This document shows positions 31,800 to 42,661 of a DNA stretch of 64,000 nt, piece after piece. Each line of letters starts with the position of its first letter. The stretch's first letter is position 1. Origin of the DNA: Methanocella sp. GTDB lineage: Archaea > Thermoproteota > Bathyarchaeia > Bathyarchaeales > Bathycorpusculaceae. Position numbers and translations under genes: made by a program. Below the pieces are notes generated by a model. It was not told the DNA's origin. It saw nothing but the letters and a program-made list of their open reading frames with translations, and ran no database searches. The stretch spans positions 10,999-74,998 of the forward strand of contig JBLNCY010000057.1 of NCBI GenBank assembly GCA_050261115.1. Direction: 5' to 3'.

Positions 31800-31971
31800 T
31801 TAGCCTTGAATGCGCATGTGATTTTGCGGCTATGGGTTGGCTTCTCATTTTTTATGTCCTTCTGTAGTCACTATCCTCTACATAGCAGACTCTAGGCAAA
31901 CACCGCAAAGGGCTATGAAGCGCTTAATTTTTTAAGTCAGACAACCATATCAGAACCGCGAAGAGAGAGAT

Positions 31972-32379
31972 ATGCCGATTAAGTATTTTCCCGCCCCCGA
32001 AATCAAAAAACAAGTTGACCAGTTAGTGCAGGAATGCGAATTCCATCATGTGGTGCCACAGTTCGTTTTCTGTGTTCGAAGCAAAGGCAGCAAAGCAAAA
32101 CGCACCATAGCCCGCATTCATGGACTGGGCAAAATCTGGCAGGGCGTACTTAACCTCCCACCCAGCTACACCATCGAGGTTATTAGCGAAATCTATGACA
32201 GGATGTCTCCCGAGGATAAGGAGCGCACGTTGATTCATGAGTTGATGCATATCCCTGGCGGCTTTAGCGGCGGCTTTAGGCCTCACAAGGGCTATGTTGA
32301 GAGGAAGAATGTTGAGGCAGTGTATAAGAAACTGCAGAGTGACCGCGCTGCGAGGCGGCAGAAGCGACTTTTTTCCTGA
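31972..32379 (+). CDS. Putative zincin metallopeptidase (COG4900/phage-metallopeptidase-like)
   Basis: RSKGS..R.IARI.G, Y.IEVISE.YD, LIHELMHIP...G..RPH. Confidence 0.85.
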   Translation: MPIKYFPAPEIKKQVDQLVQECEFHHVVPQFVFCVRSKGSKAKRTIARIHGLGKIWQGVLNLPPSYTIEVISEIYDRMSPEDKERTLIHELMHIPGGFSGGFRPHKGYVERKNVEAVYKKLQSDRAARRQKRLFS

Positions 32380-32468
32380 ATAAAACGTGGCGGCATCGGT
32401 TAAAGTTTTTAAGCTTCTTTGCCGCGGTTGTGTTTATTGCAGCTTTAACAAAAGCCATATAAGCCTTA

Positions 32469-34181
32469 ATGGGCAAAGTCACAAGAAAACTTTGCCGTAG
32501 AACGGGGTTAAACAGTTCAATGAAGCATGTTATGAAAAGTCTAAAGCACAACGGCGTATACGTTCCACCCTATGACCTAAAGGGGTTTAGTGTTAAAATC
32601 GCTGGACAACCAGTTAAATTAACACCTAAAAGCGAGCCTATGGCAGTAGCCTGGGTACGCCGAGTCCTTTCTACCACTATACCCCCACCCGATAACGTCT
32701 TCACCAAGAACTTTATGCAGGAATTTTTGCAACAACTACAAAAAGAAAACCCCAAAGCCACATTCCTCCAAGAGTTTACCCTCAAATACTTATCAAACAT
32801 AGATAACCCAACCCTCAACAACGGCGGCGTCCAAGCCCTCGACATCGACTTCACCGACATAAAAGCATACATTCTTAACGAAAAGGCCAAAAAAGAAGCC
32901 ATGACCAAAGAGGAGAAAAAGAAACTGGCTGAGGAACGCAAAGTCATACGCCAGGAGTTCCGCGACAAATACGGCTATGCCGAAGTGGACGGTCAACGCC
33001 TCGAAATCGCCAACTGGACCGCTGAACCCAGCTGCCTCTTTGCGGGACGCGGTGACCACCCCCAGCGCGGCAGATGGAAAGAAGGCCCAAGTGAAGAAGA
33101 CATCACCCTCAACCTCTCCCCCGATGCCCCCAAACCCGAAGGCTGGAAGGGCAAAATCATCTGGGAACCCGAAAAGATGTATGTTGCCAAATGGGTTGAC
33201 AAACTAACTGGCAAAGTCAAGTACGTCTGGTTCAGTGACACTGCGTTTCTTAAGCAGAACCGAGAGAAGGAAAAATTCAAAAAAGCTGAGGACCTGGGCA
33301 AACACATAGACGCCGTAGAGAAACATATTCTCAAAAACCTCTCCGCAAAAGACATCATGCGTCGGAAAACAGCAACTGTTGCCTGGTTGATTCTTGCAGT
33401 GAACATGAGGGTTGGCGATGAGAAGGACCCAGATGAAGCTGATACGGTGGGCGCCATTACCCTGCGTGATGAGCACATCAGCATTCAAGGTGACCAGGTT
33501 ACCTTTGACTTCTTGGGTAAGGACAGCGTTAGATGGGTAAAAACCGTTCAAGCCCCGCCTCAAGTCATCAAGAACCTCACTGAGTTCAAGCAGGATAAAA
33601 AAGTCCAGTACCTCTTTGAGGGCATCGACAGCAAAACTGTCAGCCGATTCTTATCTGAAAAAGTACCCAAACTCACCGCAAAAGTGTTCCGTACCTGGAA
33701 ATGCACTAAAACAGTCAAAGAAGAACTCGAAAAGAGCGGCGTAACCAAAAACGATCCCGACTACAAAAAGAACTTTGCAGCCAAAATGGCTAACCTCAAA
33801 GTAGCAGAAGTCGCTAACCACAAACGCAAAATCCCACCCACCTATGACCAGCGCATAGCGGAGAAGGAGCGGAAACTAAAGGAACTGGAAGAACAGCTCA
33901 AAGTTAAGAAAAAAGAGGGCAAAAAAATTGAGTCGCTGGAAGGCCGCATTGAGAAAGCCAAACTTGATTTGGAATTGGCTAAGCTTACCCGCGAATACAA
34001 CTTGGGCACCTCGCTTAAGAGCTACATTGACCCACGGGCATACGTTAAGTGGGCTAAGAAAGTCAAGTTTGACGTTGAAAAGTTCTATCCCAAGACCCTG
34101 CGCAGCAAATTCAGTTGGGCGCTACAGGCAGGCAGCAAGAAGAGCACGGATGCCTGCGACTCCGAGTGTATAACTCCATGA
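32469..34181 (+). CDS. top1: DNA topoisomerase IB (eukaryote-like)
   Basis: LKHNG, EP..LFAGRG.HP.RG, catalytic R (MRVGDEKD), K (FLGKDS), R (AKVFRT), H (NHKR), Y (SYIDPR); likely start 32520 or 32532. Confidence 0.96.
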   Translation: MGKVTRKLCRRTGLNSSMKHVMKSLKHNGVYVPPYDLKGFSVKIAGQPVKLTPKSEPMAVAWVRRVLSTTIPPPDNVFTKNFMQEFLQQLQKENPKATFLQEFTLKYLSNIDNPTLNNGGVQALDIDFTDIKAYILNEKAKKEAMTKEEKKKLAEERKVIRQEFRDKYGYAEVDGQRLEIANWTAEPSCLFAGRGDHPQRGRWKEGPSEEDITLNLSPDAPKPEGWKGKIIWEPEKMYVAKWVDKLTGKVKYVWFSDTAFLKQNREKEKFKKAEDLGKHIDAVEKHILKNLSAKDIMRRKTATVAWLILAVNMRVGDEKDPDEADTVGAITLRDEHISIQGDQVTFDFLGKDSVRWVKTVQAPPQVIKNLTEFKQDKKVQYLFEGIDSKTVSRFLSEKVPKLTAKVFRTWKCTKTVKEELEKSGVTKNDPDYKKNFAAKMANLKVAEVANHKRKIPPTYDQRIAEKERKLKELEEQLKVKKKEGKKIESLEGRIEKAKLDLELAKLTREYNLGTSLKSYIDPRAYVKWAKKVKFDVEKFYPKTLRSKFSWALQAGSKKSTDACDSECITP

Positions 34182-34459
34182 GCGTCGTCGAAACCAAAGA
34201 CGGCGCCAACCTCACAGTTTTTGTAAAACCCAACTCCCCAAAGTTCAAGATAGAATTTGACGGCACTGAAGTCATTGTTTACTCCACGGAGGAACCCGTC
34301 AAGGGCAAGGTGAATAAGGAGATTATGAAGGAGATGGGGAAGCTTTTGGGGTTGCGTGTGGAGATTGTTTCTGGGTTGACTTCTAAGCAGAAAGTGCTGC
34401 TCTTTAGGGGCATAAGCAAAGCTGAGGTTGAAGCACTGTTAGGTAGCTTACAGGGTTGA
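34178..34459 (+). CDS. DUF167/YggU family protein
   Basis: VFVKPNS, PVKGKVNKE, IVSGLTS..K; ATGA overlap with the top1 stop. Confidence 0.88.
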   Translation: MSVVETKDGANLTVFVKPNSPKFKIEFDGTEVIVYSTEEPVKGKVNKEIMKEMGKLLGLRVEIVSGLTSKQKVLLFRGISKAEVEALLGSLQG

Positions 34460-34525
34460 AGTGGTTGGTGGATTTGGAAAAACCATAAATTCTAAGACAC
34501 CCTAACGCTTCCTTGGTGGGTACAG

Positions 34526-34960
34526 ATGAAAGCAGACCAAGCAACCCAAAAGGGAGTTATACAGGCTTTTAAAGAAATGTTTGAGGCGTACAAAAAGAAA
34601 GACACCCAAGGCGTCCTTAACTGCTGGGCAAGCGACCCCGATATAGTAATGATTGGGTCAGGTAAGGATGAGAAAAGTGTTGGTGTAGAAAAATTTGTTG
34701 AGAGTCTAACAAGGGATTGGGAGCAAGCCAACATCACCGCCATCGACGTGAAGGATTTCAGCGTCTCAGTCTCGGGGAATGTCGCTTGGCTTAGTTCAGA
34801 TTTAACCTTTAACTATACAGTAAAGGAAAAAGCCCTGCAGTTGGCTGGGCGCTTAACGGGAGTTATGGAGAAACGCAACGGAAAATGGCTCTGGATGCAG
34901 ATGCATTACTCTGTTCCTAACGTTAATCAGAAACGCGGCCAATCGTGGCCCAAAAAGTAA
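34526..34960 (+). CDS. SnoaL/NTF2-like protein
   Basis: D..MIG.G, VS.SG.VAW, R.T.V.EKR.GKW...Q.H.S. Confidence 0.85.
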   Translation: MKADQATQKGVIQAFKEMFEAYKKKDTQGVLNCWASDPDIVMIGSGKDEKSVGVEKFVESLTRDWEQANITAIDVKDFSVSVSGNVAWLSSDLTFNYTVKEKALQLAGRLTGVMEKRNGKWLWMQMHYSVPNVNQKRGQSWPKK

Positions 34961-35127
34961 GCTGCAAAAACTGTGGACATAACTGGGCTAGTTCAATGGA
35001 GAAGTACTAGCGCCTTTTCACCATTTCTCGACGGTTATTCTATCATTATTCTTTTGTGCTTTGCATGGTTTGATTTTAGAATTAAAATAAAGCGTTTATA
35101 TCCCCCAAGGCTAAGCGTAACTTTGAG

Positions 35128-36726
35128 ATGAAGGTTATGAGCAGCAGCGAAGAAAACCGAATCATTCCAAGAACCATGTCTACCCAGCATCCAGACAACG
35201 CAGTTACACCAGACTGGAGCCGAGACGAAGTAATCGGGGGCAACGCAGAGGTCTTGGAAGCCTTCTATGCATACAGCAGTCTAGGCTGCCAGGAAGTCAT
35301 GTGGGACTCTGAAGGCAAAGACGCTGACACCCGCGTGGTTCGAAAGCTGCTCCAGAAGTACTGGGATTACTTTGCAAGCCACACAATCGGCGAAGATCTC
35401 TTCCTAACATATCGTGTTCCCAACCCAAAGATTGAAGGTGCCGAGAAGAAGATCATTGTTGAGACTCTACAGAATATCCCCGTGGCCTATGATGTGGCGA
35501 CGTTGGTTTACAAGCGGGAGGTTTCGCCCCTCTTTGAAGTCATCTTGCCCATGACTACCGACGCTAAAGAAATCATCATGCTATACAACTATTACAAAAA
35601 AGCCATAGTTGAAGCAGAAGACGCCAAACTCTACGAGCAAACCACCGTCAAAGACTGGATGGGTCACTTTATGCCCAAAGCCATCAAAGTAATCCCGCTT
35701 GTGGAAGACTTTGACAGCATCCTAAACGTAGACCAAATCATTGCGCCATACATCAAGGCAGTGAAGCCCAAACAGCAACGCATCTTCGTCGCCCGCTCAG
35801 ACCCCGCCCTAAACTACGGTCATATCTGCGCGGTGCTGCTCTCAAAAATCGCATTAAGCAAACTCAAAAAACTCGAAAAACAGACTGAACACACAGCGAT
35901 ACATCCAATCCTTGGGGTGGGCTCAAAACCCTTCCGAGGCCACCTCTCGCCAGATAACATCGACAACTTCTTACAAGAATACCAGGGCCTATCCACAGTC
36001 ACCATCCAATCCGCCTTCAGATACGATTACCCCGCAGACCAAGTCAAAGAAGGCATCCAAACCCTCAACCAACGCCTACCCAACGGGGTCCCCGAATTCA
36101 TCGACCCCGAAGAAGAATCCGTTCTCCGCGGCATTCTCTCAAAGTGCAGAAAAGAATACGAACACCAAATCGAAATCATGGCCCCCTTCATCAACGCAGT
36201 CGCAGCCTACGTTCCAGCAAGACGCACAAGAAAACTCCACATCGGACTCTTCGGCTACAGCCGATGCGTCGCAGGGGTATGCCTGCCAAGGGCCATCAGC
36301 TTTGCCAGCGCACTCTACAGCGTCGGTATCCCACCCGAATTCATCGGCCTTAAAGCACTAAACCAGCTAAGCGAACAGGAATGGCAAACCCTCACCAAGA
36401 ACTACATAAAAATGCAGCATGACTTCAAAGTAGTCGGCGAATATGTCTCCTTAAACAACATAAACATGCTCACCGAGTTGAGTCAAATCACAGCTAAACG
36501 GTCAGGCATGAGTGAAGACCAACTAAAAGACGCCCTTGCAAGCTTAATCGAGGACCTAAACGCCGCCGAGCAGAAGCTAAACATCAAGCTGGGCCCCCGA
36601 GGATTCTCCCAGAGACGACACGAGAACTTTTCAAACAACTTTTTGCTCTCATTCCTGCAGAAGCAAGATGCAGAGGCAAAGGCGGCGCTGGTGGAATCAG
36701 CCAAGCTTAGAAGATGCCTAGGCTAA
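35128..36726 (+). CDS. ppcA: Archaeal-type phosphoenolpyruvate carboxylase
   Basis: IPRTMSTQHPDN, MWD.EGK, IPLVED, ARSDPALNYG, G.GS.PFRG, GLFGYSR, PRAI.F. Confidence 0.96.
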   Translation: MKVMSSSEENRIIPRTMSTQHPDNAVTPDWSRDEVIGGNAEVLEAFYAYSSLGCQEVMWDSEGKDADTRVVRKLLQKYWDYFASHTIGEDLFLTYRVPNPKIEGAEKKIIVETLQNIPVAYDVATLVYKREVSPLFEVILPMTTDAKEIIMLYNYYKKAIVEAEDAKLYEQTTVKDWMGHFMPKAIKVIPLVEDFDSILNVDQIIAPYIKAVKPKQQRIFVARSDPALNYGHICAVLLSKIALSKLKKLEKQTEHTAIHPILGVGSKPFRGHLSPDNIDNFLQEYQGLSTVTIQSAFRYDYPADQVKEGIQTLNQRLPNGVPEFIDPEEESVLRGILSKCRKEYEHQIEIMAPFINAVAAYVPARRTRKLHIGLFGYSRCVAGVCLPRAISFASALYSVGIPPEFIGLKALNQLSEQEWQTLTKNYIKMQHDFKVVGEYVSLNNINMLTELSQITAKRSGMSEDQLKDALASLIEDLNAAEQKLNIKLGPRGFSQRRHENFSNNFLLSFLQKQDAEAKAALVESAKLRRCLG

Positions 36727-36776: not shown

Positions 36777-37859
36777 TTAGCCGAGTAGTTTTGCAAGGCT
36801 CGGAACTTTCTTTAACACAAACACAATCCCCGCAGATAGGGTAAACACGATTACCGCAAAAATGGGCACATCAATCAGGACTATGTCGGTTATCGAGTTC
36901 ACCCAGAAACCAAACACTCCATTGGAAACCAACGTGACTAGTATTATCATGTGTATTAGGTAGATGGGGAGCGTGTTTTGGCTTACCCACTGTATGATTC
37001 CACCGAGGATTTTGCGGTTGCCCAGGCTGTTGAAGTCTAGCGAGATTAACGCAAAAAACAGAGCGGCGCTTGCCAGTATGATGGTGGGGCTGACGTAGCT
37101 ATGGAAGAACCCCGTGTACTGCTCACCCAAGATACTCGTAAGCAGCCAGCTACTTGCGACGGTTCCCAGCAAGCCGCCTAGCATTAGAAGGAGCGCTCTG
37201 AGTTTTGGCATGCTGGTTTGCAGCAGATATAGGCCTAAGAGATAGTAACCGACCCAGTCTATGAGAATAAATGGGTAGGGATAATAGTTGAGTTGGGGCA
37301 AAAACACATGGATGGCAGGCGTTAGGGTGGTGCCGGCGAACCATATAATCAGCAGGTACAGGTAGAGTTTGCGGTCTAAATGCCTAACCAGCACACGGAG
37401 CACAGGAGTTAAAGCATACAGCCCCATGAGCAGGTAGAGGTACCAGAGGTGAGTGTATGCACCGCTTGCAAGTCCCTGCACCATACTCATGAGCGTGAGG
37501 GGCTGTCCCAGCACCCCAAAAGTCCATGCAAAGTAGATTACTGTCCAAAAGATGAAGGGCAACCCAATACGGTCTAGCCGCTTCTTGTAGAATACCTTAA
37601 GCGGCTCCTCTTCTCGATTGGGGTCAAGCAGCAGCACACCGGTTAACATGACAAATAGGGGGACCCCTAAAAGCCCTGCAGCGGCATAGGTGGTGGTTGA
37701 TAGCCAATTAACAACATCCATACCTGTAACTGCGGGGTTCAAGAAGCGGTAAGGAAACCCAGAGCTATGAAGCAGGATAACCATGAAAATAGCGATGAAG
37801 CGGATTACATCAATGGTATAGTTAGCGGCAACTGGTTTCTCCCCCAGACTTCCCACCAC
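36777..37859 (-). CDS. Acyltransferase family 3 membrane protein
   Basis: D..RFIAIFMVILLH, VPLF.M..G.LLL, HLWYLY..GLY, TL.IYL.H. Confidence 0.9.
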   Translation of the reverse strand: MVGSLGEKPVAANYTIDVIRFIAIFMVILLHSSGFPYRFLNPAVTGMDVVNWLSTTTYAAAGLLGVPLFVMLTGVLLLDPNREEEPLKVFYKKRLDRIGLPFIFWTVIYFAWTFGVLGQPLTLMSMVQGLASGAYTHLWYLYLLMGLYALTPVLRVLVRHLDRKLYLYLLIIWFAGTTLTPAIHVFLPQLNYYPYPFILIDWVGYYLLGLYLLQTSMPKLRALLLMLGGLLGTVASSWLLTSILGEQYTGFFHSYVSPTIILASAALFFALISLDFNSLGNRKILGGIIQWVSQNTLPIYLIHMIILVTLVSNGVFGFWVNSITDIVLIDVPIFAVIVFTLSAGIVFVLKKVPSLAKLLG

Positions 37860-37924: not shown

Positions 37925-40198
37925 CTAGACTTTACCTGATAGTACCTTCTTTAGTTCAATCCAAAATGTCGCCAAAAACGACACCCCAACCACCAGCACC
38001 CAATCCGAAGCACCCAAACTCGTGATTTGGAGGGCAGCCTGAGTAGCGGACAGAGAGGTACCAACAGCTAACAAGAAAACCGCCAGCAAACCCCATAGCA
38101 GCATAATCCTGTTTGTTAGGATGCCATGTTTGAACAGCGGAGTGTTTCCGGTTCGGAGGTTTAGCGCCAAAAAGACCTGGCTAAACAGCAAAGTGGCGAA
38201 AGCGACGGTTCGGGCATGGGTTATTTCGGCAGTTGAGTAGTAGGTGAATAGGTAGGTGGCGGTGACGGCTAGAGTTAGGCTTAATGCGCCTATCAAGAGC
38301 GACCGAAGCATGCGTTCATCCATGAAGGTTGCGTAAGGCGCCTGCGGCTTGTTCATTGCGCCTCTCTCCTGAGGTTCCCCAACAAAGAGTACAGATGCAA
38401 CTAAATCCACAAACAACACAAGCACCAAGACCTGGATGGGCGCAAACGGCAAAGGAACACCCAACAAGACCGGAACCATAAAAGTCAGTGCCAAAGCGGC
38501 TTTACTGGCAAGGTAAAACCGGATGCCCTTACGAATGTTACCGTTGAACCTTCGGCACTCACTTATTGCGTTTTCGATGGCGGCCAAATTATCATCCACT
38601 AAAACTATGTCTGCAGCTTCCCTAACATCAGCCCCATTGGTGCCCATAGCGATGCCAATGTGCGCTTTTTTAAGTGCGGGTACGTCGTCTATGTCGGTGC
38701 CGGTTACTGCAACGGTCTCGCCCGTTGCTCTTAGAAGCTGAATTATGCGCAGCTTATCCCCCGGAGCAATGTTAGCGAAAACAGGGGTAATCTTGAGGGC
38801 TTCTTTTAGGACTTCATCGGGCATGGTTGCCATTTCCTCGGCACTCAAGACATGGGTATTAGGGATTCCGATTTGACCTGCAAGGGTTTTGGCGGTTTGG
38901 GGGTGCTCGCCGGTAATCAATAGGATGCGTATGCCCGCTTTTTGGCAGTTGCGGATGGCGCTTGGTACCCCTAGGCGGGGAGGGTCTATGAAGCCGATGA
39001 TGCCGACAAACACAATCTCCCTTTCAGCCTCATCGACCGACTCGTCTGGGTGTAGTCGGCGGTAGCCGAATGCTAAAAGACGCTCGCCCGCATGTGCCAT
39101 CCGTGCCGCCGCCCTAGAGGCTTCCGCCCGTAGCTCGTCGGTTAGGGGTGTTTCTTGGCCTTCTAGGAGTATGCGGTTTGATGTTGCCAGTAGCTTTTCG
39201 GGTTCGCCGCTCGTTAAGGCAACAGTTGAGTTGCCGTACTGGTAAATGTATGTGACTAGTTTTTGTTTATTGTCTAAGCGTAGTTCGTCTTTGAGAATCC
39301 AGTTGCTTGTTACTGCAGTCTTGTCTATGCCCACCTGTTTGAGCCGCTCCAAAATGGCCTTAGCCATCGAGTTAGAGAGTTGGTTGTCGGGGGTGTCACT
39401 TGCTAAAAACCCTGTGCGTAGGGCGGATTTCTCGTTCTCCCCAAACTCCCTCGAAGCATGTATGGTACCGTCAAAGTAGAGGTGCTCAACACGCAGCTTG
39501 TCCTCTGTTAAAATGCCTGCTATGTCGGTGGCGATGATGCTTACATTGCCCAAGTTTTCTGCTGCATTCATCCGCTTTACGATGGCGCCTTTGCATGACA
39601 ATGCCAAGCTACCTATCCCAAGAGCCGTAGCGATGATTAGCGGTAGCTCTCTAGGAACAAAGGCAAACGCTAAAGCAAGACCATAAAGCACTGCACCGGC
39701 GGGGTAATCTTGAAGTCCCGGTAAGCCTCGAATGTAACCTAGCAGGGGAATCAGTATAGCAAGGAATACTGCCATCCAAACCAGGGTTCTTGGCAGATGC
39801 TTCATAGCGATAGGTTCTCGGAGCTGCTCGCTCCTTAGAATTGTTGACGTTTGTGGTACCAGCCGATGCAGAGCCGAGATGGCCCGGTTAGTGCGGTACT
39901 CATTCCAGACGTTAACCAGCACCAAAAGAACAAACACCATTGCGACTGTAGCTATGGCAGTTAATCCGTCACCAGTAACTATGCCCAAAGCACTGTAGAG
40001 CACGCCTATAAAGAGCAGCAGAAGAGTCATGGGCTCAGTGGTTTTCTTCTTAAGAATGTCTAAGAGGCGGATTTTGGGTTCCTGAACCACCGTGTTCTTG
40101 CCATACTTACATGCCTCTTGCTCTGTACCCCTTTGGGTGTCTGAGCCTAAAGCTGCAGCACCATCTTCGGAGTGTTGGGTGTATGGCGGAGGATTCAT
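37925..40198 (-). CDS. Degenerate P2-type P-type ATPase (actuator domain missing, catalytic motifs substituted)
   Basis: P-type TM, N and P domain architecture, but DIAGILT for DKTGTLT, no TGES region, GTDIDD for GDGxND. Confidence 0.85.
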   Translation of the reverse strand: MNPPPYTQHSEDGAAALGSDTQRGTEQEACKYGKNTVVQEPKIRLLDILKKKTTEPMTLLLLFIGVLYSALGIVTGDGLTAIATVAMVFVLLVLVNVWNEYRTNRAISALHRLVPQTSTILRSEQLREPIAMKHLPRTLVWMAVFLAILIPLLGYIRGLPGLQDYPAGAVLYGLALAFAFVPRELPLIIATALGIGSLALSCKGAIVKRMNAAENLGNVSIIATDIAGILTEDKLRVEHLYFDGTIHASREFGENEKSALRTGFLASDTPDNQLSNSMAKAILERLKQVGIDKTAVTSNWILKDELRLDNKQKLVTYIYQYGNSTVALTSGEPEKLLATSNRILLEGQETPLTDELRAEASRAAARMAHAGERLLAFGYRRLHPDESVDEAEREIVFVGIIGFIDPPRLGVPSAIRNCQKAGIRILLITGEHPQTAKTLAGQIGIPNTHVLSAEEMATMPDEVLKEALKITPVFANIAPGDKLRIIQLLRATGETVAVTGTDIDDVPALKKAHIGIAMGTNGADVREAADIVLVDDNLAAIENAISECRRFNGNIRKGIRFYLASKAALALTFMVPVLLGVPLPFAPIQVLVLVLFVDLVASVLFVGEPQERGAMNKPQAPYATFMDERMLRSLLIGALSLTLAVTATYLFTYYSTAEITHARTVAFATLLFSQVFLALNLRTGNTPLFKHGILTNRIMLLWGLLAVFLLAVGTSLSATQAALQITSLGASDWVLVVGVSFLATFWIELKKVLSGKV

Positions 40199-40448
40199 CA
40201 GGCAGTCCCTAAATTAGTATAAGTCGTGTGCTAGTTGCGGGCTAAACACGCCCTAAAAGGTTTGCAACAGTAATCAATAGAATCCTGCTGGCAGCTGTTT
40301 TTAGTTTTTATCCGTTCATGTTTATTTGCCTGCTTTTCTTTTGACAGAAAGGTGCTAAATGAACCGCTACCACAGTTTTAGTATAAGAACAGCAACGATA
40401 CATCTGGTAGTGTTTAGGTAGGTTCTGCAGGGTGGTTTCCAAACCAGA

Positions 40449-40685: not shown

Positions 40686-41762
40686 ATGCATAAAAAACTC
40701 TTGATTCCCGGTCCAACAGAAGTAAGTAAAGAAGTACTCAGTGAACAAAACCAATATTTAATCGGGCACAGAGAAAAAGAGTTCTCAACATTATACGGCG
40801 GAATCACCGATAAAATCGCCAAATTCTTCCAGTTACCCGCCGATTACAAACCCACCGTTACCACAGGCTCCGGAACGCTATGGTTTGACATAATCGGCCG
40901 AAGCATAGTAAAAGAAAAAGCACTCGCATGCGTCAACGGCGCCTTTAGCCAACGCTGCGCACAAACCCTCATCTCATGCGGCAAACAAACCGACATACTA
41001 GAAGTAGAAATGGGCAAAGCAATCAAACCCGAGATGGTCGCCGAGAAACTCGCCACCGGCAAATACGACACCTTAACTGTTTGCCACAACGAAACCAGCA
41101 CGGGTGTAAGAAGTCCAATCGCCGAAATCGGCAAAATGGTCAAAAAAGAATATCCCGGCATAATCTTTGCCGTGGACGCGGTCTCGTCTATGGCAGGCGA
41201 CAAAACGCTGCCCAATGAACTCAACTGCGACATCGTGTTTGGCAGCACACAGAAATGCTTCGCACTACCCCCCGGCTTAGCAGTAGCGCTAGTCTCTGAT
41301 CGCGCAATCGAACGCGCTAAAACCGTTCCTAACCGAGGCGCCTACACCGATCTAGTTGACATGTTCGAGTTCGAAAAGAAACATCAAACACCCTTCACGC
41401 CAAACGTTAGCTTACTCTATGCACTCAACAAACGCATGGACCTTCTACTGGAGGAAACCTACGATAAAGTCTACCAGCGCCACCTCGACATGGCGCAGTA
41501 TACTCAGGCGTGGGCAAAGAAGCACTTCAGCATGTTCCCCGAGGCAGGATATGAATCCATCACTGTTAGCTGCATAAACAGCAACGGCAAAGACGTTAAC
41601 GCAATGAGCAAAAGGCTTGCTGAGGAAAAGGGCTACTTGATTTCTGCGGGTTACGGTAAACTTAAGGATAAAACCTTCCGCATCGGCCACATGGGCGAAT
41701 GGAACCTAGACGGCATCAAAGACGTACTTGCTAGTATAGATGAGATTTGGGGATTGAAGTGA
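40686..41762 (+). CDS. Class V PLP aminotransferase (SerC/serine-pyruvate type)
   Basis: LIPGPT, HNETSTGV, VDAVSS, STQKCFALPPG, FRIGHMG. Confidence 0.92.
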   Translation: MHKKLLIPGPTEVSKEVLSEQNQYLIGHREKEFSTLYGGITDKIAKFFQLPADYKPTVTTGSGTLWFDIIGRSIVKEKALACVNGAFSQRCAQTLISCGKQTDILEVEMGKAIKPEMVAEKLATGKYDTLTVCHNETSTGVRSPIAEIGKMVKKEYPGIIFAVDAVSSMAGDKTLPNELNCDIVFGSTQKCFALPPGLAVALVSDRAIERAKTVPNRGAYTDLVDMFEFEKKHQTPFTPNVSLLYALNKRMDLLLEETYDKVYQRHLDMAQYTQAWAKKHFSMFPEAGYESITVSCINSNGKDVNAMSKRLAEEKGYLISAGYGKLKDKTFRIGHMGEWNLDGIKDVLASIDEIWGLK

Positions 41763-42661
41763 CCGTAAAAATCCTTGTTAGCGACAGAATCGCTGACGAA
41801 GGCATAAAGATTCTTAGAGAACAAGGCTATGAGGTCACGGAGGGTTGGGATATTCCTAAACCTGACCTTCCCAAAATCATCGGAGAATACGACGTTTTAA
41901 TTGTCCGCAGCGCAACCAAAGTTAGAGGCGAGCTTTTAGAGAACGCAAAAAAGCTCCGAGTTATCGGCCGAGCAGGCGAAGGCTTAGACAACATCGACTA
42001 TGAGCGAGCCAAACAGTTAGGCATCACAATAGTCAATACTCCGCATATTTCATACATTAGCGTCTCAGAACTAACCATCGGTCACATGATTGCACTTGCA
42101 CGCAACATCGTTCAGGGCACAACCTCTCTACGGGAGGGCAAATGGGAAAAAGAAAAACTCATGGGTACCGAACTCAACGGCAAGATGCTGGGTGTCATCG
42201 GCTGCGGCTACATCGGCAAAGACGTCGAACGCTTGGCGCTGGCGTTAGGCATGAAGGTTATTGCAGTTGAGGAATGTGTCTATGATCGGTTTGTGCCCCT
42301 TGCAGACATGTTGCCGCAGGCAGACTTCATAACCATCCATGTCCCCTTAACGCCCAAAACGCGTCATCTGCTTTCCGCCAAGGAATTCCAGTTGATGAAG
42401 CAGGGAGTACGCATAATCGACTGTAGCCGCGGAGGCGTCATTGATCAAGATGCGCTCTATGAAGCGTTGGTTAGCGGCAAAGTTGCAGGTGCAGCGCTTG
42501 ATGTCTTTGAGGAGGAGCCGCCTAAGAATAACAAGCTGCTCACGCTCCCAAACGTGATTGCTACGCCGCATATGGGTGCTCAAACTCATGAGGCGCAACA
42601 TCGGGCAAGCATACAAATAGCCAATAACGTTATAGATGCGCTTGAAAAACTGAAGCTGTGA
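41759..42661 (+). CDS. serA: D-3-phosphoglycerate dehydrogenase
   Basis: VRSATKV, RAGEGLDNID, G.IG.G.IG, H.PLT..T, RGG.ID, LDVFE.EP, TPH.GA.T.EAQ. Confidence 0.9.
   Translation: MTVKILVSDRIADEGIKILREQGYEVTEGWDIPKPDLPKIIGEYDVLIVRSATKVRGELLENAKKLRVIGRAGEGLDNIDYERAKQLGITIVNTPHISYISVSELTIGHMIALARNIVQGTTSLREGKWEKEKLMGTELNGKMLGVIGCGYIGKDVERLALALGMKVIAVEECVYDRFVPLADMLPQADFITIHVPLTPKTRHLLSAKEFQLMKQGVRIIDCSRGGVIDQDALYEALVSGKVAGAALDVFEEEPPKNNKLLTLPNVIATPHMGAQTHEAQHRASIQIANNVIDALEKLKL

Follow-up and report, generated by a model that had tools for sequence, protein, structure and literature searches.

The window, as we call the whole 64,000-nucleotide (nt) stretch analysed here, is part of contig JBLNCY010000057.1 in a 2.15-Mb metagenome-assembled draft genome of 66 contigs (GCA_050261115.1; Bathyarchaeia). 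An open reading frame (ORF) on its minus strand, 37925..40198, encodes a protein of 757 amino acids (P0001) derived from P-type ATPases, and a gene for a membrane acyltransferase lies directly downstream. The ORF listing and the translation gave exactly these coordinates, and the start is well defined because the frame stays open for just five more codons upstream. An initial annotation had described an open frame of 757 codons with the transmembrane (TM) segments and the nucleotide-binding (N) and phosphorylation (P) domains of a P-type ATPase, without the actuator (A) domain, and had proposed that the protein kept a function other than pumping. The frame was confirmed, and the AlphaFold2 model of the protein contained 10 TM helices together with confidently predicted N and P domains. 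The window protein and its short orthologues P0003 and P0004/P0130 are named type A pseudo-pump below.

By homology and fold, as judged with NCBIfam, Pfam and Foldseek, the protein belongs to the P-type (E1-E2) ATPase superfamily. The Pfam family Cation_ATPase_C was matched in full (1-175/175) with 112.5 bits and Hydrolase with 39.3 bits, both above their cutoffs. The match to Cation_ATPase_N was weak, and E1-E2_ATPase was matched by the TM3-TM4 tail only (profile positions 116-178 of 181), with 15.9 bits against a cutoff of 28.1. The best NCBIfam model, the PMR1-type Ca2+-ATPase TIGR01522, gave 322 bits and did not pass its cutoff of 798; it placed residues 134-752 on profile positions 239-848 and skipped roughly positions 100-238, the actuator part. 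TIGR01116 was not passed either (228 against 703), and the generic P-type model TIGR01494 was the sole NCBIfam model passed (141.6 bits; cutoff 62.3). A phmmer search of the PDB sequences placed Listeria LMCA1 at the top (1e-74, over residues 168-756). The gene is a derivative of a type-II P-type ATPase, from an uncharacterised family of PMR1/LMCA1-like pumps in Bathyarchaeia. LMCA1 (6ZHF, 6ZHG, 6ZHH, 9EUQ, 9EVC) and the SPCA/PMR1-type pumps (7YAI, 8IWP) are clear homologues that share the 10 TM helices and the N and P domains. Unlike these pumps, the window protein is without the TM2-TM3 actuator loop and its TGES motif, its DKTGT, TGD and GDGxND motifs are rewritten, the Glu of TM4 is replaced by Arg/Lys and that of TM6 by Val. 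None of the hallmarks of a functional P-type pump (DKTGT, TGES/actuator, TGD and GDGxND) is therefore present in canonical form, and the TM4 and TM6 acidic residues, like the TIGR01522 and TIGR01116 scores, place the protein outside the P2A-type Ca2+-ATPases.

Alignments with the intact orthologues showed that 108 residues are gone between ...ILRSEQLRE128 and P129IAMKHL... (codons 39817-39812). The missing residues are the globular TM2-TM3 actuator loop with TGES, and the junction between E128 and P129 lies within the region, about 39800-39845, to which a deletion after TM2 had first been assigned. The boundaries of the deletion are identical in P0001, P0003 and P0004/P0130. TGES is needed for hydrolysis of the E2P state, and the actuator domain, which is considered essential to P-type ATPases, carries out dephosphorylation and moves the membrane gates. 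In the AlphaFold2 model, residues 1-40 and 113-134 had low confidence (predicted local distance difference test, pLDDT, <50). Foldseek matched the predicted fold to E1-state structures of SPCA1a, Na,K-ATPase and SERCA (probability 1.00, TM-score about 0.8). A separate gene for the A domain was sought with tblastn across the whole genome, and the deleted loop was found only inside six other full-length P-type ATPase paralogues, at up to 48% identity; a split gene was rejected.

The draft nature of the genome (a metagenome assembly in 66 contigs) raises the question of whether a collapsed or chimeric contig, or an error of binning, removed the actuator domain. We regard such an artefact as scarcely credible. 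The exact 757-amino-acid protein occurs on 28 independently assembled contigs from three sources (NCBI, JGI and Logan), the junction recurs in two other species-level lineages that are 69-70% identical, and the rewritten positions are spread along the whole gene.

Orthologues with the same deletion, whose existence the initial annotation had made a check of its proposal, were found at the same syntenic locus. P0003 (759 amino acids) and P0004/P0130 (732-739 amino acids as called) form two further clusters at 90% identity, without a Pfam E1-E2_ATPase match, and share DIAG(I/V)LT, P(K)ELP and the TM6 Val with the window protein. The short-form lineages are 69-71% identical to one another in amino acids. 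The called start of P0004 (732 amino acids) is probably too far downstream, as an in-frame ATG 66 nt upstream (L004:7935-8000) encodes MNPPPYPQ..., which matches the N-terminus of the window protein; a 21-residue N-terminal deletion in P0004 was accordingly rejected as a gene-calling artefact. The three type A contigs have in common the order ATPase, Acyl_transf_3 and then, on the other strand, PEPcase_2, SnoaL-like, PF1765-like and topoisomerase IB. In the trees, the four short forms make up one clade (support 100/100) with a long stem (0.28-0.38), nested beside the intact P0005 group.

The motif changes read from the DNA at first were all present at the codons given for them: DIAGILT, with the Asp codon at 39526-39524, TGE, GTDIDD and VPREL. 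SGEPE was likewise found; however, the intact parent already has SGAPE rather than KGAPE, and only the change of Ala to Glu/Asp is new. The DKTGT motif reads D-I-A-G-I in the window protein and D-I-A-G-I/V in its orthologues, with Asp alone kept; K226I and T227A are common to all four short forms and T229 is I/I/V/I. The Asp of TGD (D431) is E/E/G/G across the four, the motif being TGE/TGE/TSG in the three lineages. GDGIND has become GTDIDD/GEGIDD/GDSVDD, with T/E/D/D at its first Asp (D501), D/G/S/S at G502 and D in all four short forms at N504. Mutagenesis of SERCA has shown Lys352, Thr353, Asp627, Asp703 and Asn706 each to be needed for phosphorylation or turnover. The four core residues of the haloacid dehalogenase (HAD) fold, D225, T429, K482 and D505, are invariant in the short clade, and N-domain K313 and R373, which we take to be the counterparts of SERCA K492 and R560, are kept in type A. 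A conservation screen of 80 intact homologues gave 436 columns conserved at ≥95%, 53 of them inside the deleted segment. Among the remaining 383 near-invariant columns, the four short forms all retain 205 and all depart from 51, and 127 are changed in some of them. Because the ex-catalytic positions vary among the short forms, a site that is no longer used fits better than a remodelled one. The predicted loss of pumping is supported both by the missing TGES loop and by the variation of phosphorylation-, Mg- and ion-site residues among orthologues.

The TM4 motif is V-P182-R-E-L-P in the window protein and P-E-E-L-P in intact orthologues, with R/K/K/K at position 183 in the short forms. In TM6 (VLV594LFVD598), E594 is replaced by V in the short forms and D598 is kept in all orthologues, so that the acidic position of TM6 has become hydrophobic as first described, but the second acidic site has not. 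Alignment gave an ion pocket of E and E in TM4, K in TM5 and E and D in TM6 for the intact family, with a net charge of -3, and of R/K and E, K, and V and D for type A, with a net charge of 0. A pocket of this kind would be electrically self-sufficient, and a cation would be neither needed nor likely to be bound. The charge tethered to TM4 would stabilise a membrane domain that binds no cation. Active pumps are known that carry a positive charge of their own in the cation site, such as Lys791 of H,K-ATPase, Arg655 of plant AHA2 and the Artemia Na,K-ATPase alpha2KK, and the structure of the last (PDB 8K1L) was among the phmmer PDB matches. As in these pumps, Lys/Arg in the canonical cation pocket of type A offsets buried carboxylates. 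However, H,K-ATPase, AHA2 and alpha2KK are active and have the full catalytic machinery, whereas the charge of type A accompanies total loss of that machinery.

The kept residues could belong to a transporter or enzyme that still works by an altered mechanism, for example a nucleotide-gated or constitutive leak, opened when the gate-controlling actuator domain was removed, or a slow HAD phosphatase or phospho-switch built on Asp225, Thr429, Lys482 and Asp505. The short clade does not vary at these four positions, its strongly constrained N domain retains K313 and R373, and all ten TM helices are present in the predicted model. P-type pumps can become channels when their gating is uncoupled, as happens to Na,K-ATPase under palytoxin, and the structure of the palytoxin-bound Na,K-ATPase channel (9vj0) was among the fold matches. 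Nevertheless, we consider this explanation quite improbable. In DKTGT, Ile stands in place of Lys, Ala in place of the first Thr and Ile/Val in place of the second, and an active site would not vary as D501 (T/E/D) and the Asp of TGD (E/E/G) do. The Lys/Arg and Val in the ion pocket disfavour cation permeation. Among the roles of channel, sensor or regulator that had been proposed, that of a cation channel is disfavoured by the Arg/Lys in the ion site.

The closest full-length proteins are 'cation-translocating P-type ATPases' of 866-878 amino acids from Candidatus Bathyarchaeia, 57-63% identical to the window protein. The intact orthologues P0005, P0006 and P0019 have 60-63% identity outside the deletion, and several have Acyl_transf_3 downstream like the window. 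They keep TGES, DKTGT, TGD, GDGIND, (I)PEELP and (L)ELFMDLAAS, which the short forms do not. With 587-599 bits against 798, they fall below every NCBIfam subfamily cutoff, and the parent is therefore an uncharacterised P2-type pump. The intact Bathyarchaeia orthologues are the direct parent family of type A. No intact copy of this subfamily was found in the window genome, where the next best genes are five other type-II ATPases with 33-37% identity and with TGES, DKTGT and GDGxND in canonical form. The intact paralogue that had been suggested for comparison is thus missing, and redundancy with such a gene was rejected for the window genome as well as for that of the second lineage (type B) described below. 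Among 24 other species of the genus, 13-14 have an intact orthologue, about nine have none and in one (G002) the copy contains a stop codon. The gene can evidently be lost outright, as in about nine of the 24 genomes, and the persistence of the short form is therefore informative.

Two variants of the family were seen besides. The orthologue in G002 (G002:C9:10315-12539) consists of separate matching pieces, one with an in-frame TAG, and may be a truly broken copy. A 2.6-kb metagenome contig (L031:156-2144) encodes an in-frame variant of the intact family with 662 amino acids that keeps TGES, TGD and GDGIND and is without TM3-TM4, DKTGT and part of the N domain; as it is a single contig, it may represent a recent deletion or an assembly chimera.

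The short ATPase is under purifying selection. Maximum likelihood (ML) gave a ratio of nonsynonymous to synonymous substitution rates (dN/dS) of 0.41, and dN/dS = 1 was rejected with twice the log-likelihood difference (2dlnL) at 115.5, so that the neutral rates that would have spoken against a retained function were not found. The counting method of Nei and Gojobori (NG86) gave 0.25-0.34, with bootstrap 95% limits of 0.20-0.42. The corresponding values were 0.06-0.12, or 0.06-0.14 at the widest, for the intact orthologues, 0.05 for the flanking phosphoenolpyruvate (PEP) carboxylase (92-95% amino-acid identity) and 0.08-0.15 for the flanking acyltransferase (84-87%). The synonymous divergence (dS) among the three type A lineages is 0.4-0.7, unsaturated and equal to that of the flanking genes, which indicates that the short ATPase gene is as old as its neighbourhood. 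When neutral change was simulated to match the synonymous distance observed (0.2-0.3 changes per site), each lineage gained 10-14 stop codons and none of 1000 frames stayed open; in the short-form lineages, no stop codon was observed. About nine lineage-specific insertions or deletions were found, all in frame (multiples of three). With catalytic residues lost and purifying selection acting across species, the protein qualifies as a putative pseudoenzyme in the sense of a dead homologue that selection retains. A retained function other than pumping, as initially proposed, is supported by the dN/dS of the whole gene, the simulations, the in-frame insertions and deletions and the shared deletion.

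The constraint is spread unevenly over the protein. The junction linker (103-136) had a dN/dS of 1.17 in the short clade and the N-terminal A-domain remnant one of 0.63, neither different from 1, compared with 0.02-0.07 and 0.12-0.23 in the intact proteins; both stretches coincide with the parts that AlphaFold2 leaves disordered. The P domain had values of 0.42 in the short clade and 0.05-0.06 in the intact proteins, and the TM segments 0.28-0.50 and 0.055-0.12. The N domain was the most constrained part of the short forms (0.21, 2dlnL 78.9; intact 0.055-0.15). The rank order of the domains in the short clade is the reverse of that in a working pump. The leftovers of the actuator drift, and the remaining protein is under real but relaxed constraint.

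Relaxed constraint could also mark a functionless relic whose frame is held open by indirect selection, either against polar effects on the acyltransferase gene or against toxic truncated or misfolded membrane fragments. Such a relic would account for a dN/dS 3-7 times that of the intact orthologues, for catalytic residues that drift freely, and for a constraint order, N domain ahead of P and TM, that is expected from selection for folding alone. The family is dispensable, with about nine of the 24 genus genomes lacking it and a stop codon in the G002 copy, and at every pseudo-pump locus the acyltransferase gene follows closely in the same orientation. However, polarity accounts for the missing stop codons and not for the amino-acid constraint, which in the N domain (0.21) and the TM segments (0.28-0.50) is in every case significantly below 1. 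Toxicity would be ended by deletion of the whole gene, which occurs in the genus. The short form nonetheless persisted in three lineages to a dS of about 0.5, and the independent type B to a dS of about 1 and 43% amino-acid divergence. Furthermore, the basic TM4 residue is kept (R/K/K/K) and the 200 nt upstream of the gene are conserved. A relic is, on this evidence, unlikely.

A second lineage of short proteins, type B, is represented in Bathyarchaeia by P0203 (713 amino acids, NCBI NLD66219.1), P0366 and P0367, with lengths of 713-720 amino acids. P0203 emerged when the 50% cluster representatives were compared all against all; the 90% cluster to which it belongs, annotated 'HAD-IC family P-type ATPase', comprises 31 members from >100 contigs. 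P0366 is 88% and P0367 57% identical to P0203. Type B keeps the first ~30 residues of the family and the C-terminal part of the actuator loop, and is without TM1, TM2 and the TGES part, that is, the N-terminal two thirds of the loop. Its motifs read DK(I/V)G(V/I)LT, PEK(L/F), DRD/DSD/SSD and GYDVKD/GCNVTD, and the TM6 Asp is replaced by Phe/Tyr. By alignment, its ion pocket (E, K, K, E, F/Y) is net-neutral. The dN/dS of type B was 0.27 (2dlnL 181), lowest in the N domain (0.12) and higher in the P domain (0.27) and TM5-10 (0.37), and the lineage has persisted through a dS of about 1 and 43% amino-acid divergence. No intact orthologue was found in the type B genome.

Type A and type B share the ancestral locus and its neighbours, dead motifs, a net-neutral pocket and an N domain that is the most constrained part. 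They differ in origin, in the deletion and the rewritten positions, and in that type B lost the TM6 Asp rather than the TM6 Glu. In the trees, type B groups with other intact proteins than type A does. A single origin of both is disfavoured by this placement and was rejected by the approximately unbiased test (AU p = 0.015), the forced grouping costing 13.9 log-likelihood (lnL) units. The type B locus contains the ATPase, Acyl_transf_3 (54% identical to that of the window), metallopeptidase, topoisomerase IB, PF1765-like, SnoaL and PEPcase. Type B has lost the nucleotide-site equivalents of SERCA K492 (to Glu) and R560 (to Ser/His), and ATP binding is therefore unlikely to be the property shared by the two types. 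Given that the TM6 Asp and TM1-TM2 are missing as well, an activity common to both types would be independent of ATP binding or the canonical ion path, which is a further point against an altered transporter or enzyme.

Full-length relatives with degenerate motifs were also observed: P0201, P0215, P0242 (HEY1330896.1, Actinomycetota) and P0228. In P0201, TGES is replaced by NDKL, and in P0215 and P0242 (Actinomycetota), DKTGT is replaced by NEIAG. Across the four proteins, TGES reads NDKL/AGGS/AGGA, DKTGT reads DETRT/NEIAG, and the acidic residues of TM4 and TM6 are changed to Ala or Gly. Their positions on separate branches of the tree suggest that motif-dead P2-type ATPases arise repeatedly.

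We conclude that the window protein is probably a selectively retained, catalytically dead non-pump, or pseudo-pump. It descends from a pump family, shares its deletion with its orthologues, has lost catalytic residues and is under purifying selection over the rest of its length. An ancestor shared by at least three species-level lineages would have lost the TM2-TM3 actuator loop with TGES through a single in-frame deletion. Constraint would then have lapsed on the phosphorylation pocket (DKTGT to DIAG[I/V]LT, TGD, GDGIND) and on the ion site. The product is predicted still to fold into the 10-helix membrane domain with N and P domains, and an E1-E2 phosphoenzyme cycle would not be possible. 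The cation pocket would have been neutralised by Arg/Lys for the first Glu of the TM4 PEEL motif and by Val for the TM6 Glu, and what is now constrained would chiefly be proper folding, most strongly that of the N domain. Judging from these sequence features, the protein would act as a non-catalytic membrane protein. Roles as a scaffold, partner or regulator are plausible, with a membrane partner or scaffold, possibly of the downstream acyltransferase, as the best guess.

Several observations weigh against this conclusion. The intact pump is 3-7 times more strongly constrained, and 46% of once near-invariant positions are changed in at least one short form; the early phase of slow gene decay would look alike. 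The short clade is small, with three 90% clusters among 5.8 billion proteins, and no further member was found in that set with the whole protein and the junction as queries, in metagenome contigs or in GTDB genomes. The short forms retain the nucleophilic Asp, the Thr of motif II, the Lys of motif III and the final Asp of motif IV, which formally would allow residual phosphate chemistry or binding. The charges of the pocket were read from the alignment to SERCA and LMCA1 positions and not from coordinates. The downstream acyltransferase, the sole lead to a partner, is a candidate from gene order alone.

A wider interpretation is tentative, and we hold it with considerable doubt. Bathyarchaeia would have turned the same P2-type pump gene at least twice into a domain-deleted, dead, charge-neutralised and retained scaffold, which would be a new functional class; the membrane and N domains would serve as a non-catalytic partner or regulator, most plausibly of Acyl_transf_3, and together with P0201, P0215 and P0242 they would make pseudo-P-type ATPases a recurrent, previously undescribed result of how pumps evolve in prokaryotes. 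Full-text searches of the literature found no published description of actuator-less or motif-dead P2-type ATPases. Here, a natural protein that has no actuator domain and has lost phosphorylation and ion-binding residues has long been kept in several species, and a sister lineage is independently similar, which suggests that the pump scaffold has a second use needing no catalytic cycle. The type A protein offers structural work a natural 'frozen' P2-ATPase, and the two types would illustrate how a buried ion site can be neutralised convergently. It is also a warning for annotation, since the names that NCBI-style pipelines assign, 'HAD-IC family P-type ATPase' or 'Ca2+-transporting ATPase', overstate the ion-transport capacity of these archaea.

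As Table 1 shows, the acyltransferase gene has the same orientation as the ATPase gene. The two genes are 65 nt apart in the window, 49-139 nt at the remaining type A loci and 76-228 nt at those of type B. Acyl_transf_3 is also found downstream of several intact orthologues (G005, G007, G014), which marks the pairing as ancestral and common, though not required. Over the 200 nt that precede the ATG, the window is 80-81% identical to L001 and L004, compared with 55-72% at fourfold sites, and the next upstream genes differ. Two CTTATACT (TATA-like) words occur in this region, some 25 and some 190 nt ahead of the ATG. It had no Rfam match even at E <= 1 and a folding z-score of -0.42, that is, no excess folding energy. 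A structured RNA or riboswitch was rejected on these two results and because the three sequences showed no covariation. The region reads as conserved promoter or operator DNA, which would fit a gene that is still regulated.

Table 1. Coordinates of the pseudo-pump gene, its parts and associated loci (window positions unless a contig is named).
Feature	Position	Strand	Evidence or remark
Whole ORF P0001, type-II P-type ATPase derivative	37925..40198	-	ORF, Pfam, NCBIfam, homology
Residues 1-55, N-terminal actuator (A) domain remnant	40034..40198	-	pLDDT 32-40 for 1-40; dN/dS 0.63; weak Cation_ATPase_N
Residues 56-102, TM1-TM2 hairpin, kept	39893..40033	-	model helices 56-75, 78-113; dN/dS 0.28
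Residues 103-136, stalk/linker with deletion junction	39791..39892	-	alignments; pLDDT <50 for 113-134; dN/dS 1.17
Residues 137-198, TM3-TM4	39605..39790	-	P-R-E-L-P at 39641-39655; helix break at 181-183
D225-I-A-G-I-L-T, ex-DKTGT phosphorylation motif	39506..39526	-	alignment
Residues 236-404, nucleotide-binding (N) domain	38987..39493	-	pLDDT 85-92; dN/dS 0.21, 2dlnL 78.9
T429-G-E, ex-TGD motif	38906..38914	-	alignment
G500-T-D-I-D-D, ex-GDGIND motif (Mg2+ site)	38684..38701	-	alignment; nearby residues 519-533 pLDDT <50
Residues 556-757, TM5-TM10	37928..38533	-	Cation_ATPase_C 1-175/175; dN/dS 0.50
TM6 VLVLFVDLVAS (E594V, D598 kept)	38393-38425	-	alignment; TM5 Lys566 kept
Acyl_transf_3 membrane acyltransferase, 360 amino acids, co-oriented, 65 nt downstream	36777..37859	-	conserved neighbour
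~200 nt conserved non-coding DNA upstream of ATG	40199..40420	-	80-81% identity among type A loci
Type B ORFs	L040:4480-6621; L041:748-2892; L043:6001-8163		second pseudo-pump lineage
Conserved block	window ~31900-36726; L004:11403-16147; L043:9335-14163		whole block inverted in type B relative to type A genomes

The conserved block listed in Table 1 adjoins the ATPase-acyltransferase pair and comprises metallopeptidase, topoisomerase IB, PF1765-like, SnoaL-like and archaeal PEP carboxylase genes. On the plus strand of the window, at 40686-42661, a class-V aminotransferase gene (40686-41762) overlaps a gene of the D-2-hydroxyacid/phosphoglycerate-dehydrogenase type (41747-42661) by 16 nt, and the pair is serC-like/serA-like.

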